The notes below the pieces were generated by a model. The model was not told the DNA's origin, did not search any database, and worked only from the letters and a program-made list of their open reading frames with translations. Shown here one piece after another: positions 44,101 to 50,100 of a stretch of 64,000 bases of DNA (position 1 is its first letter; each line of letters starts with the position of its first letter). This DNA comes from Hormiphora californensis (Eukaryota > Animalia > Ctenophora). Where the stretch lies: the NCBI GenBank assembly GCA_020137815.1, contig CM035359.1, positions 1,240,001 to 1,304,000 of the forward strand, written 5' to 3'. A program made the translations under genes and the position numbers.

Positions 44101-47100
44101 CCATGATTTTAACATTCCGCCCGAAGGGCGGGCGGCCCATCTCTTTATGCTGCTGCAGGCTGCTGCAGGCTGCTGCAGTTGTAATTTGTGCGTCTGTTTG
44201 TCTGTGCGTCTGTTTGTCTGCAGCTGCTGCTCTGGAGTTACTTTCAAGACTAGCAAGAATTCTAACACATTTTATACTTCACTGCGTGTTAAATGAAAAT
44301 TAACTTCGTTTGTGATTTTATCCAAAATATTGAAGTAAGATTGCGATTTTGAAGCACATGTACACTTTTGTTCGATTAAGTTACTTTTAGGCATTTTGAA
44401 TACAGTTCTGAAGAAGTATTTTTAGGAATGAAGTAATTACTGAAGTATATGCAAGTGAAGTACTTTTTAGGTGCTTTTGTTGCTATTATGATGAAGTATT
44501 TTTTTGAGTGAAGTAATTACTGAAGTATCTACCACGAAAAATTTTGCTTCAGTCGATATCAGTCTAGCAACGGAAGTATTTTCAAAACTGTAATATAAGT
44601 GAAGTAACCAACAGAGTAAGGCATCAATTTTGATGCCTGACATCAATTTGAGACAAATTTGATGATAGCTGATAATTGGAAGTCCTGCAGAATTCCTTCA
44701 GGATTCTTGTGGTATAAGTCATAAATCGTTTGACGTACTATTTGGGCTTCTATGACAATTTTAGTTCCGAAAAACCCTCTAAAAAACTTTAAAGTCGATT
44801 TTCTCGAAACTTAAGGGTACACCTGGCGTTTTTCATCATCGAGTGCCCAACCAAATGACTTCACCAGGGTTTAGTTCATACAAAATGGACCTCAAATATG
44901 CAATTTTAGCCCTAAAGTCGAATTCATATTTTTGCTACAGCATATTTTCAAAGTGGCGTTTTTTCAATTTTTGTCGGAATTTTTAACCTCAGGACCACTT
45001 TTTTTGAGATAGAAACATTAAATTCTTGGAATTTGAAGAGAATATAAAGGTGAATAAGCCCAAAGAAGGATTTTTGAAATGGAGCTTATTTCTGGCCATG
45101 AGAACGGTTTACTTTTTTGCTTCTTTGACACGCTGGCTGAGAATGTTCCCATGCTTCATTAGAGATGAAAATCTGGAAATAGTTGCTCAAAACGATTATC
45201 TATGTGGCCCAAAAATTTTGGAACTTTCCCGCCAAAGATGTGGTGTACAGAGCTTGTTTTGTGAAACCCGTCTTTTTGAAAAAGAGGGAAATTCCCTGTA
45301 TCTCAAAAACGGATGATCGTAGAGACCTGCGACCAAGCTTAATCGATTCAGAAGGTCCGATTTTGGGGGGGTCTTCTGAGAGACATTTTGCTCCTACTCC
45401 AACCGTTTTTGCTATAATTGCGAAAAAGGTATCAGCAAGTAAGGGGGAAATCAGCCCGAAGCAGGCTACTGGAATAGAGTTGTTCCCCCTTTTCATAGAA
45501 TTGGTTTTTTGCAATTACAGCAAAAACGGTTGGAGTAGGAGCAAAATGTCTCTCAGAAGACCCCCCCAAAATCGGACCTTCTGAATCGATTAAGCTTGGT
45601 CGCAGGTCTCTACGATCATCCGTTTTTGAGATACAGGGAATTTCCCTCTTTTTCAAAAAGACGGGTTTCACAAAACAAGCTCTGTATACCACATCTTTGG
45701 CGGGAAAGTTCCAAAATTTTTGGGCCACATAGATAATCGTTTTGAGCAACTATTTCCAGATTTTCATCTCTAATGAAGCATGGGAACATTCTCAGCCAGC
45801 GTGTCAAAGAAACAAAAAAGTAAACCGTTCTCATGGCCAGAAATAAGCTCCATTTCAAAAATCCTTCTTTGGGCTTATTCACCTTTATATTCTCTTCAAA
45901 TTCCAAGAATTTAATGTTTCTATCTCAAAAAAAGTGGTCCTGAGGTTAAAAATTCCGACAAAAATTGAAAAAACGCCACTTTGAAAATAGGCTGTAGCAA
46001 AAATATGAATTCGACTTTAGGGCTAAAATTGCATATTTGAGGTCCATTTTGTATGAACTAAACCCTGGTGAAGTCATTTGGTTGGGCACTCGATGATGAA
46101 AAACGCCAGGTGTACCCTTAAAAAATGCAAATACTTCATTCTAAAAAAAAGGGGCAGAATAATACCCGGTAAATAGAGTTTTTTTTAATGCAAAATGCTA
46201 ATTTGTGCGGTAAATCGATGATCAGTTGTACCTGTAAGTTAAATTCCATTCCGGCTCAAGATTATTATCGCGAACTGGACTGACACTTCTGCAATTTTCA
46301 ATTTCAAATACTACGAAGGGATCGACGGTTCCAAATTGTTTTGTCGGGATGTTCGTAGCTCTGATCAACTTGACAATAAGATATCCGACATTGTCGATAT
46401 CTTGTCCCGTTTTCGCTGAACAATCGAGGTATTAATGATAATTAGGTCATGATCGTGGATTGTAGTTATATTTAGAAATATATATTGAACTAGCGCACCC
46501 ACCGGGTGCACCTCAAGCATGGCGTTGATGACAAACCCACCCGACACGACTTCAAATTATAACAGAGATATTCTCTAGAACCCATGTACAGCTGTCAAGA
46601 CTCGCTTTCCCGACAGGTTTTCTTACTGATTTGTTTTACTATAAAAGGGATGAAATGAAAGGGATGGAATGAAAATATGCCCTTAAATCTACTCTGATAC
46701 TTTAAATACTCTCAAAAATCAAAATCGATGTGGTAACTTCCTCGCTCAATTACCTATCGAGATTGACAAACATAATACCTAGTAAGTAGTACCTATCATC
46801 TATGAAATATACGTTGTAGTACCTATCATCTTAAATCTATGAAATAAACGCTGCCAGAAGTAGCCTGTGATTGGAGCAAAGGTAACCGCCTGACAGGGTT
46901 CACATGATGGGGTGGGCGTGACAGATAATAATATAATATAATAGATGAACCTCTCGCTCGTATTTTAAGTGAGAGTGGACCGAATCAGAATTAGACAGGT
47001 TTGTTGTAGGTATAAGTAGAGATTTATCTCTAATTATTAGTGGAAAGGGGGTGGACTATAGCCGCTGCATCTCGTTTCTGCTAACTAGTGTTACAACTGT

Positions 47101-50100
47101 ACGGAACCCTCCAGCTCCGATACCCTGTTTACAAGCCATACAGCAGGGATCTCGGCTAGATTCATCTCGATTAGGCACATATTGCTTCACACTATTAGCA
47201 GATTGATCGTGATCTTATATCATGAATCTCTGATAGAAACAAACATTGTATTCTAACAAGAGTCGAATCAACCTTCTCATGTGTTAGTCAGTAGGCTCCA
47301 TTCAGGTCTTTAACACAGTTCTCTCCCGTACAGTGCGATTAAACAACTGATATATAAAGGGTGGGTCGGGCGAACTGATCCTAAACTGGCCAACACATGG
47401 TAACGAGAGCGGTGGGCTACCGTCTTGGCGTGCACTGTCACCGGTACATGTCAAATGGAAAGGGGGTGGACTATAGCCGCTGCATCTCGTTTCTGCTAAC
47501 TAGTGTTACAACTGTACGGAACCCTCCAGCTCCGATACCCTGTTTACAAGCCATACAGCAGGGATCTCGGCTAGATTCATCTCGATTAGGCACATATTGC
47601 ACATATTGCGGCTATAGTCCACCCCCTTTCCATTTGACATGTACCGGTGACAGTGCACGCCAAGACGGTAGCCCACCGCTCTCGTTACCATGTGTTGGCC
47701 AGTTTAGGATCAGTTCGCCCGACCCACCCTTTATATATCAGTTGTTTAATCGCACTGTACGGGAGAGAACTGTGTTAAAGACCTGAATGGAGCCTACTGA
47801 CTAACACATGAGAAGGTTGATTCGACTCTTGTTAGAATACAATGTTTGTTTCTATCAGAGATTCATGATATAAGATCACGATCAATCTGCTAATAGTGTG
47901 AAGCAATATGTGCCTAATCGAGATGAATCTAGCCGAGATCCCTGCTGTATGGCTTGTAAACAGGGTATCGGAGCTGGAGGGTTCCGTACAGTTGTAACAC
48001 TAGTTAGCAGAAACGAGATGCAGCGGCTATAGTCCACCCCCTTTCCATTTGACATGTACCGGTGACAGTGCACGCCAAGACGGTAGCCCACCGCTCTCGT
48101 TACCATGTGTTGGCCAGTTTAGGATCAGTTCGCCCGACCCACCCTTTATATATCAGTTGTTTAATCGCACTGTACGGGAGAGAACTGTGTTAAAGACCTG
48201 AATGGAGCCTACTGACTAACACATGAGAAGGTTGATTCGACTCTTGTTAGAATACAATGTTTGTTTCTATCAGAGATTCATGATATAAGATCACGATCAA
48301 TCTGCTAATAGTGTGAAGCAATATGTGCCTAATCGAGATGAATCTAGCCGAGATCCCTGCTGTATGGCTTGTAAACAGGGTATCGGAGCTGGAGGGTTCC
48401 GTACAGTTGTAACACTAGTTAGCAGAAACGAGATGCAGCGGCTATAGTCCACCCCCTTTCCATTTGACATGTACCGGTGACAGTGCACGCCAAGACGGTA
48501 GCCCACCGCTCTCGTTACCATGTGTTGGCCAGTTTAGGATCAGTTCGCCCGACCCACCCTTTATATATCTAATTATTAGTGTCTGACGGAGGCACGGAGC
48601 TTTTCTGAATCAGCTTATCAAGACGAATCCAACGCAACCGGAATTAGCTTTCTATCTTATCGGGAAGGTGTGGTTTTGACGCTCAAAATTGACCCATCCA
48701 TCACTGAGATATTTTTGGTACAATGGGAGAATTCCTGTAAGATCAATATTTGTCAAACAAGATAGAAACAATCCTTTTGTTTCACTAACACTTACTAACT
48801 TTTAGCAGTGAGGTTAACGTGTCCATGCACAGAAGCAGAGCAATGCAAGTCAGCATATTAAAAATTCAAAGAATGTGTTAGTGAAACACAAGGATTGTTT
48901 CTATCCTGTTTGACAAATATTGATCTCACAGAAATTCTCCCATTGTACCAAAAACATGTCAGTGATGGATGGGTCGATTTTGAGTGAAAAAATCAAAATG
49001 CTTTGAGAACTATTCTCTGCTACCTACAAAAAACTTGTCCAATTCTGATTCGGTCCACTCTCACTGCTAAGAAAGCAGTTACCTAAAGAGTATGCCTCTG
49101 TAAGGACACGCGATTCTGCGTCATTGATTTCCTTGGAAAGTTGCAGCTCTGTGGCTCCGAGTTCCGCAAATTTCAAAATCTTGATAAGGAAGCTTATCTT
49201 CGTATTGGTGTTATCGAGGCTGAAGATGTATCTGGGGGGGGGGGGGTATTTCATTTGAGAACTTTTACAGAAGGGCATACACAAAAATGTGATTTGAGTC
49301 GTTCAAGATTGGAAGGAAAAATGAAAACTCGACACCGCCATAACTCACCCCATAAATTGAATCTAAACATTTTACAACTCACTTGAACGGCTTGTTAGGG
49401 GCTATTTTGGTGACATCAATCTCCGTATCTCCAATGATGTTGTCACTTAGTCCCACTTCATTGTCCCACAAACTTGCCTGCCATTATTTTTAGTTTTGTA
49501 TTGATTATTATTGATTATTATTTTCAATGAAATTCGTACTTGATTACACAAAATAACCTTTAAAGAGAAACAACGATTTTGCAGTACTAATATTCAATTA
49601 AGAACAGGAGCTTTCGACTGATCTATGTCAGACGTCTTCAGCTATAACAACAATGAAAATGAAAGTGTTTATGTAGTGGAGAAGAGGATATGGGATCCGG
49701 GGAGGGGAGGAGAGAGAGGAAGGGATGAGATCCGAGAAGGAAGATGCTATCCGAGAGGAGGGGATGGGGGAGGTGATCCACGGGAAGGGAGAAGAGGTGA
49801 TCCGAGCTGAAGAGAATTAGGAAACAGGTTTGGGAGATCTAGGTTTGATGGAGATGCCAGCAGGACGGGGTTTGAAGGAGTTAGCAATCCTGGGGAGAAG
49901 GTGAGTCCATTGGAGGTTGACAGTAGGAACTTTATCTGTTCGGTTAATCGCCGGTTGAAGAGTGTGAATAGCCGCTTGTTCCAGTAGATTTAGACTGAGG
50001 CAGGAGGAAGAAGAGGAGAGGATAGAGGTAGAATTCCAGTCCATGGTGTGTCCAGATTCCCGAGCGTGGATAGCAGGAGCAGATTTCATCTTCCCATCGG

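Follow-up and report, generated by a model that had tools for sequence, protein, structure and literature searches.

A tandem insertion of a 415-bp non-coding unit with one inverted arm in Hormiphora californensis, possibly mobilised by a Penelope-like protein and without a known ribozyme

Structure of the insertion and its surroundings

The window analysed here, a 64-kb stretch of Hormiphora californensis DNA, contains an insertion totalling 3.7 identical 415-base non-coding units, with one arm inverted, between two copies of its target site (Table 1). An earlier note on this DNA had reported identical head-to-tail 415-bp units and a single inversion with a 9-nt junction duplication, and both descriptions were confirmed. 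All unit copies are 100% identical by blastn, the 1,522 nt containing not a single difference, and the duplicated sequence, GCACATATT, lies at 47590-47598 and again at 47599-47607, leaving 7 nt (47601-47607) between the arms and a following GC that fits both of them. In unit phases, the left arm extends from 25 at its outer end to 296 at its inner end, and the right arm from 1 at its inner end to 132 at its outer end. The inner end of the right arm is at most 25 nt (modulo 415) from the start of the left arm, which fits one continuous template (chance about 12%). Microhomologies of 2 nt are present at all three junctions.

The 14-bp target duplication was also recovered and occurs exactly twice in the window; its length is 10-14 bp, because 2 nt of each copy, at the end of the left one and the start of the right one, match the unit as well. 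The target core (47030-47040) forms a perfect palindrome about a single central base and shows ATT on each strand; palindromes of this kind are found in 835 of the 17,863 AT-rich 14-mers of the window. In agreement with the absence of a convincing ORF noted before, no open frame of at least 150 aa overlaps the insertion, and the six-frame translation of the circularised unit is full of stops. Whether the units start and stop at arbitrary phases, as claimed, is open to doubt in the case of the outer ends: the unit contains just two CCACCC motifs, and these ends, found 8 and 10 nt past them, look non-random.

Table 1. Features of the insertion and neighbouring elements, in window positions
Feature	Position	Strand	Remarks
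MITE-like host element	46967..49065		high-copy, with terminal inverted repeats of 45 nt; split by the insertion
Left target-site duplication	47029..47042	+	14 bp; last 2 nt match the unit too
Left arm	47041..47600	-	560 nt = 1.35 units; reverse orientation, A-sense on the minus strand
TATA box and initiator-like motif 32 nt downstream	47351..47387	+	B strand, one per unit; putative promoter
Junction	47590..47607	+	9-nt tandem duplication, then 2-nt GC microhomology
Right arm	47608..48569	+	962 nt = 2.32 units, A-sense
One 415-bp unit	47608..48022	+	phases 1-415; 45.8% GC; non-coding
Helix closing the C-rich loop	47614..47669	+	phases 7-12 with 57-62; predicted; kept in three subfamilies, pair types change
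C-rich single-stranded loop	47619..47633	+	phases 12-26; least paired 12-nt window in the predicted A-strand fold
Right target-site duplication	48568..48581	+	first 2 nt match the unit too
Penelope-like element	49612..51787	-	656-aa open frame; hammerhead-like core 49641-49612

The Penelope-like element reported nearby is indeed present (ORF 49817-51787), and its nearest named relatives are ctenophore proteins. The unit shows no similarity to it, as 9/60 and 58/60 shuffles score equally well; without common sequence, its proximity is not evidence. The window also contains a nearby 1.8-kb duplication with many 1-nt indels and two ORFs which we take to resemble CRE-clade elements and which have no Pfam match.

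A high-copy family and a rare allele

In public reads, the unit belongs to a high-copy family with subfamilies. Classified by likeness to the unit, the contigs of run X1 number 277 at 99% or above, 214 at 95-99%, 265 at 90-95% and 86 below 90%. The divergent subfamilies continue across the unit boundary, run X6 contains a permuted piece of 413 nt, and other inverted junctions are represented by one contig each in runs X1 and X9. These data support the view that the insertion is a member of a mobile, non-coding, high-copy tandem family. The insertion site appears to be empty in run X1, from another individual. The insertion is likely recent.

At one unit position, a rare allele is carried by all four copies of the insertion (4/4), and the other allele was mostly seen in each of the seven runs covering that site. 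The presence of this allele in all four copies and its near absence from close relatives indicate one template for both arms. The same allele bears on whether the structure is an assembly or amplification chimera. Identical copies and a fold-back do look like such chimeras, the nearby duplication carries its many indels, and the insertion is known from assembled sequence alone; however, the palindromic target is duplicated, run X1 seems to have the site empty and all copies carry the rare rather than the majority allele, which makes this explanation extremely improbable.

The summed read depth drops 3-4 fold just beyond phase 125-132 in runs X1, X2 and X9, as a preferred 3' end would give. Counting against such an end, the loose ends listed (15/132 and 8/109) form no pile at these phases, and one contig of X6 terminates at about phase 260. 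Contigs from the RNA runs X10, X12 and X17 have depths of 2.8-9.7 and end at differing places. In the same runs, the host element has no contig in X10 and X12 and one in X17, uncovered parts being uninformative. Run X24, which bears the same species label and is possibly RNA, contains none of the words of the unit, and X20 contains a small share; neither was counted as evidence.

Outside the species, pattern scans returned 3, 0 and 0 loci in viral contigs, 2 in metagenome contigs and 0 in prokaryote genomes. The five viral and metagenome loci were attributed to chance, with a resemblance of only 18-21 nt around the pattern match. A blastn search against phage and plasmid sequences gave no match to the insertion.

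Search for ribozymes and other known motifs

As the earlier note had stated, there is no CUGANGA core on either strand. No Watson-Crick 3/8 hammerhead variant with an intact core was found on either strand, and none of 17 one-mismatch windows was convincing by eye; the same pattern search does detect the core of the neighbouring Penelope-like element. An HDV-like descriptor (a nested double pseudoknot with conserved L3, P1.1 and J4/2) gave 0 and 0 matches on the two strands in its strict form, and 2 and 2 in its relaxed form, for which 30 shuffles averaged 1.5. The proposed Rfam comparison, which extended to the class models of twister, hairpin, pistol and hatchet ribozymes, yielded 0 matches on the insertion (E up to 10) and 0 over the whole window at gathering scores, and it also missed the hammerhead-like core of the neighbour. 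A twister-like loop on strand B lacks its pseudoknot partner. A group I intron, a tRNA primer site, SINE boxes, a hairpin ribozyme and a viral origin nonamer were rejected by eye on the basis of their motifs, no tRNA was found, and the ctenophore spliced leader, as described in PMC8527503, was not seen in the unit by eye. Because no known self-cutting RNA motif was found, the unit would be a ribozyme-free cousin of retrozymes.

Folding and promoter-like motifs

The long-range complements listed previously exist, but their number does not exceed chance: the observed counts of perfect stems are reached in 67/500 shuffles for stems of at least 7 bp, 110/500 for at least 8 bp and 232/500 for at least 9 bp, and one complement is perfect only through the rare allele of the insertion copy. 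Circular folding of strand A gives z = -1.1 (19/150 shuffles as low), compared with z = -2.8 for strand B (1/150). Strand B also has more confident pairs (111 vs 83) and, in the insertion copy, a lower loop-domain z (-3.5 vs -2.2). Sliding 100-nt folding found no window under z -2.6. The better folding of strand B in the insertion copy counts against an A-sense RNA template.

The predicted helix beside the C-rich loop was compared by hand across three subfamilies. Its pairs 7/62, 8/61 and 9/60 read A-U, G-C and G.U in the first, U.G, U-A and C-G in the second, and A.G, G.U and C-G in the third, so that 8/9 are paired on A and 5/9 on B. This covariation favours strand A. There are 18 variant sites, six of them in confident A pairs; three of these six break pairing against the reference partner and count against an A-strand structure. 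The outer end of the left arm coincides with the 3' edge of the C-rich loop, phase 25 closing the most unpaired window. In this one insertion, both outer ends follow C-rich unpaired stretches, with starts 107 nt apart.

The TATA box and initiator-like motif, defined by consensus motifs, occur at such spacing in 49/5000 shuffles in a post hoc test. Their position on strand B counts against an A-sense RNA template, and no A-strand promoter was found in the unit. These motifs might alternatively belong to a miniature LTR element (TRIM) or a one-LTR circle on strand B, which has a purine run before TG, CA before TGG and the TATA box between them. Such an element is very improbable: the duplication is 10-14 bp rather than 4-6 bp, the ends lie away from the TG/CA motifs, both divergent subfamilies show changes in the purine run and in TG, the start site would be only about 15 nt from the primer site, and among the contigs listed at most two have loose ends at any unit position, compared with 25 and 39 at the host-element ends (46967 and 47012). 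With neither fixed TG...CA ends nor a 4-6 bp duplication, the miniature LTR reading is largely refuted.

Origin of the insertion

Both 3' ends of the target continue into B sequence, and both templates would therefore be A-sense. Our preferred reading, which remains tentative with a probability of about 0.42, is that a tandem element, non-autonomous and mobilised by Penelope, was copied from multimeric RNA without a known ribozyme. A source array would be transcribed through several units on strand A, and a dimeric GIY-YIG/RT protein would cut each strand of the ATT-rich target palindrome, the two cuts lying 10-14 bp from one another. From each 3' end, cDNA synthesis would then begin at an internal point of the RNA (phases 25 and 132), shortly beyond a C-rich loop and with 2 nt matching, and the conserved helix beside the loop may act as a binding and start signal for the protein. 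The two cDNAs would extend for 560 and 962 nt, and the shorter would slip back 9 nt before the arms join via GC, producing a head-to-head inverted multimer.

The steps have precedents. In vitro, a Penelope protein makes cuts at ATT on both strands and extends each of them, begins within its RNA at an AC-rich loop that has no homology to the target, and, when purified, inserts unprocessed RNA with no need for cleavage by its own hammerhead ribozyme (PMC11167929). Tandem copies with an adjacent inverted copy, mostly head-to-head and with 8-10 bp duplications, are described as a Penelope-like pattern (PMC3846280, PMC8557442), and Chlamydomonas is described as having non-autonomous forms that lack a hammerhead and occur in multiple head-to-tail copies (PMC8557442). 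Given this documented layout, the hammerhead-less forms and ribozyme-independent insertion, neither a circle nor a new ribozyme is required. The circular-RNA retroelement proposed in the earlier note is thus retained in part, as a mobile family with a probable RNA template and Penelope mobilisation and without a hammerhead, and its circle and novel processing motif become dispensable.

Naiads lack canonical hammerheads and are present in ctenophores; for the helper protein, a Naiad of this hammerhead-less kind is the foremost candidate. Four published Naiad 3' ends, compared with the unit by eye, show short resemblances only, and the want of a sequence link to an autonomous element counts against the preferred reading. 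In the published consensus file, a short motif that precedes the right end is 3'-terminal at 1 of its 16 places, and it is therefore not a general Naiad signature. Under the linear model, every unit of the source array must have carried the rare allele beforehand, so that the origin of the multimer is pushed back one step. The gap of 107 nt between the starts, instead of a 30-40 nt 'tail', counts against double priming of the Penelope type.

A 415-nt A-sense circular RNA, excised by a new ribozyme or by a protein and copied by rolling-circle reverse transcription with double priming, is possible, if somewhat doubtful. Exact head-to-tail multimers would regenerate naturally from it, and both arms exceed one unit without any difference in spite of a heterogeneous family; the distribution of the rare allele, the subfamilies that cross the unit boundary and the permuted X6 piece also point this way, and size and GC match the non-LTR retrozymes described in PMC7229834. 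Set against these are the missing ribozyme core, A-strand folding within the range of shuffles, the low depth and differing ends of the RNA-run contigs, and the finding that RNA processing is not required for insertion by Penelope (PMC11167929). The stronger version, in which 415-nt circles would cut and re-join themselves by a new ribozyme formed by the covarying A helix and the C-rich loop, and spread by rolling-circle copying with a Penelope-like RT priming on both strands, is unlikely.

Microhomologies and templated duplications are typical of microhomology-mediated repair. The 2-nt microhomologies at 3/3 junctions and the 9-nt templated duplication may thus reflect capture of a satellite-like repeat, in the form of a small extrachromosomal circle or of multimeric cDNA, by repair synthesis into a staggered break from both ends. 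This would permit a B-sense RNA, with its TATA box and better folding, whose A-sense cDNA served as template. We nevertheless regard DNA-templated capture as distinctly unlikely, as the palindromic site is cleanly duplicated over 10-14 bp without a deletion, the ends lie beside C-rich loops, inversions recur, and the covariation assessed by hand favours strand A.

Twin priming on a repeat transcript by a LINE-type or CRE-type non-LTR retrotransposon would draw on the two presumed CRE-like ORFs in the window. An inversion within a duplication of about 14 bp also resembles those of L1 (PMC2837659); nevertheless, no poly(A) tail was found at either insertion end and no TTTT/A site at the target, the target is symmetric, and both starts are internal to the repeat, which together render this origin quite improbable.

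This locus is relevant to how Penelope-like elements form tandem and inverted structures, and to whether hammerheads matter in these elements or only ride along. With its exact junctions, its single marking allele and two arms that each exceed one unit, the young insertion would be a natural record of two-strand priming, known so far in vitro. Retrozyme surveys, as described in 10.64898/2026.07.22.740005, begin with a hammerhead search, and ribozyme-free animal relatives would therefore be missed by design.

Comparison with known systems

The insertion resembles L1 twin-priming inversions (PMC2837659) in its two opposed cDNAs within one duplication of about 14 bp, and differs from them in having a periodic template and neither poly(A) nor the L1 target motif. 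Metazoan non-LTR retrozymes, thought to depend on Penelope-like elements, are described as having units of 150-450 bp, a GC content below 50% and duplications longer than 4 bp, comparable to the 415 bp, 45.8% and 10-14 bp found here; they carry a type I hammerhead per unit and form demonstrated circles, whereas the present unit lacks the core and its circle is hypothetical (PMC7229834; 10.64898/2026.07.22.740005). [quoted passage not shown] Compared with Penelope/Poseidon and Naiad insertions as reported, the unit has no ORF, both arms exceed one unit and the starts are 107 rather than 30-40 nt apart; shared with them are a tandem array with an inverted copy, an AT-rich target with a short duplication (8-10 bp in theirs), a TATA-like motif in the repeat and, apparently, extension of both strands and internal starts at C/A-rich loops (PMC3846280, PMC11167929, PMC8557442).

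Anatomy of the insertion

Throughout both opposed arms of the insertion, the 415-bp unit is repeated head to tail with 100% identity across all copies, as the earlier note had described, and no further copies were found elsewhere in the window. The inversion with its 9-nt junction duplication and the 14-bp target duplication were likewise recovered; a GC microhomology also joins the arms, and 2 nt at each end of the target duplication are common to the unit. No long ORF was found in the insertion, in agreement with the previous reading. The long-range complements listed for the unit do exist, but they do not exceed those of shuffled sequences (67, 110 and 232 of 500 shuffles for 7-, 8- and 9-bp stems).

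Features of the insertion and of the surrounding window
Feature	Position	Strand or orientation	Remarks
Target duplication	47029-47042, 48568-48581		14 bp
Left arm	47041-47600	B	560 nt
Extra nucleotides between arms	47601-47607		7 nt
Right arm	47608-48569	A	962 nt
MITE-like element	46967-49065		High-copy, split by the insertion; inverted repeats 45 nt (terminal), 126 nt (internal)
Penelope-like open frame	49612-51787	-	656 aa; apparently 5'-truncated; minimal hammerhead-like core
ORFs	606-1655, 2985-4457		By their motifs, presumably similar to proteins of CRE-clade non-LTR retrotransposons; no Pfam match
Nested inverted repeats	5232-7071		292, 85, 127 nt; 98-100% identical
Seven-transmembrane receptor gene fragment	28583-29140		
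Complex satellite	36546-39985		Periods 132-468 bp
G-rich minisatellite	41820-43377		34 bp, 45 copies
Fold-back element	44811-46121		617-nt arms, 99% complementary, 77 nt apart
Tandem duplication	51858-55462		1.8 kb, 96.6% identical, many 1-nt indels; may be assembly or haplotype artefact

Search for ribozymes

A circular-RNA retroelement lacking a known ribozyme had been proposed. Indeed, no hammerhead core was found on either strand with 3/8 covariation allowed, following the variants in PMC4209133, while the same search recovered the core of the neighbouring Penelope-like element at 49641. Thus, the insertion is not a member of the retrozymes. The strict HDV-like descriptor had 0 matches on the unit and the relaxed one matched at shuffle level, and a twister-like loop occurs without its pairing partner. 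The insertion also had no match in Rfam, a weak negative as Rfam misses the neighbour's hammerhead-like core as well. A monomer circle processed by a new ribozyme is doubtful.

The family in public sequencing runs

The unit is present, whole or in part, in 20 of the 24 listed runs, six of these being RNA, with one organism and marine metagenomes as sources; contigs of 8 of the 24 were compared in detail with the insertion. In run X1, summed depth, which gives no copy number, was 173.7 on the unique flank versus 34,398-397,442 on the unit, and a fair reading is that this genome holds hundreds of units. The family is heterogeneous and includes deletion variants, and opposite-strand joints other than the insertion's own were seen in one contig each of X1 and X9. 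An artefact is scarcely credible. Among the RNA runs, X10 has contigs with 99-100% likeness over most of the unit, X12 over 208 nt and X17 over 200 nt (depth 2.8-9.7); these contigs end at differing places and may be DNA, and strand, ends and circularity are unreadable from them. Capture of DNA, as an origin of the insertion, is very doubtful.

At phase 399, all four window copies carry one allele, while the other predominates in all seven of the compared runs that cover the site (X1, X2, X6, X9, X10, X11 and X17), at depths of 238,612/243,554 in X1, 189,304/189,572 in X9 and 128.8/160.5 in X2. Since a single allele that is rare in the runs occurs in all copies, both arms come from one monomer lineage. 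This is compatible with a circle or with a source array that was already uniform. A monomer circle as the template is possible though rather unlikely; we tentatively prefer a linear multimer as the template (probability about 0.4).

A 110-nt contig of X1 at single-copy depth agrees with the window to the very end of the left duplication, beyond which 35 of its letters are unaligned. The empty site is predicted to end at 48616, about 30 nt inside the high-copy part starting near 48587-48589, as expected for 31-letter words, and the contig was therefore taken as the empty site. Judging from these positions rather than from the 35 letters themselves, the X1 individual probably lacks the insertion.

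Strand and predicted folding

Two observations favour strand B, the complement of strand A (the plus-strand reading of the unit from 47608, phase 1, to 48022, phase 415): this copy is predicted to fold better on B, and B carries a candidate TATA box and initiator, a pair found in 49 of 5,000 shuffles. Other observations favour A. Three variants within helices predicted with confidence (phases 399, 197 and 56) form G.U on A and mismatches on B. Three further variants disrupt confident A pairs when set against the partner in the reference; the partner strand is also changed in the source subfamilies. By hand reading, helix 7-12/57-62 keeps 5/6, 6/6 and 6/6 pairs on A in three subfamilies, and for its three variable pairs 8 of the 9 cells are paired on A and 5 of the 9 on B. 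The helix found only on B, the source of B's better score, keeps 7/8, 5/8 and 4/8 pairs. This covariation covers two divergent subfamilies, mostly from one run, among the rows listed; their strands were phased through shared depths in X2, 31.7 for the first subfamily and 23.5 for the second, which has one strand in X9 too, and phases 57-59 of one were assumed unchanged.

One of the three subfamilies (depth 23.5) matches the C-rich telomere repeat over 9 nt at phases 12-20, inside the loop from which the left arm begins; this was seen post hoc.

Ends and target

B sequence continues each target 3' end, so both templates would be A-sense, placed head to head. At its core, the target forms a perfect palindrome centred on a single base, and each strand reads ATT; such palindromes occur in 835 of the 17,863 AT-rich 14-mers of the window. 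A LINE-type origin of the insertion is improbable. The outer ends fall at phases 25 and 132, which is 8 and 10 nt past the unit's only two CCACCC motifs; of all 12-nt stretches in the predicted A fold, the least paired closes at phase 25, and phase 132 is in the top 13% (all seen post hoc). Summed depth drops 3-4 fold just past phase 125-132 (201,471 to 63,930 in X1, 233.7 to 53.3 in X2, 152,432 to 45,493 in X9). This drop would suit a preferred 3' end, or it could simply mark a segment that varies more. Two observations count against a fixed end: among the rows listed (15 of 132; 8 of 109), each unit position has at most two loose-ended contigs, and one X6 contig (depth 3.9) ends near phase 260. 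A TRIM is highly improbable.

Relation to Penelope-like elements

Taken together, the insertion works like a non-autonomous element or a retrozyme that presumably depends on Penelope. Among named proteins, those closest to the neighbouring Penelope-like protein come from Bolinopsis and Mnemiopsis (46-59% identity), with coral at 33-35%, which makes a ctenophore the likely host. Pfam domains were not matched in the frame of this element, although relatives carry precomputed ones, and sequence comparison found no similarity between the element and the unit. The right-end sequence resembles the final 30 nt of the Beroe consensus published for Naiad, a Penelope-like clade (about 14 of 17 columns by eye), and short matches to the unit were seen by eye elsewhere in Naiad 3' regions. 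No Beroe-like resemblance was seen by eye at the Mnemiopsis Naiad end, and the right-end motif is terminal in 1 of its 16 places in the published consensus file. From sequence likeness, Naiad may be a candidate lead to the helper.

No ribozyme-free tandem element of this kind was found reported from an animal in the open-licence literature; supplements of PMC7229834 and of bioRxiv preprint 10.64898/2026.07.22.740005 may list such families. With a purified Penelope protein, both strands were cut and extended at ATT, synthesis began internally on the RNA at an AC-rich loop, and unprocessed RNA was inserted with no hammerhead cleavage involved (PMC11167929). For Penelope insertions, PMC3846280 gives duplications of 8-10 bp, inversions in head-to-head arrangement, and a TATA motif that can be read in either direction. 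According to PMC8557442, endonuclease-less Penelope-like elements make use of telomere-repeat stretches, Naiads without hammerhead are present in ctenophores, and non-autonomous elements of Chlamys, another Penelope-like clade, are multicopy and arranged head to tail.
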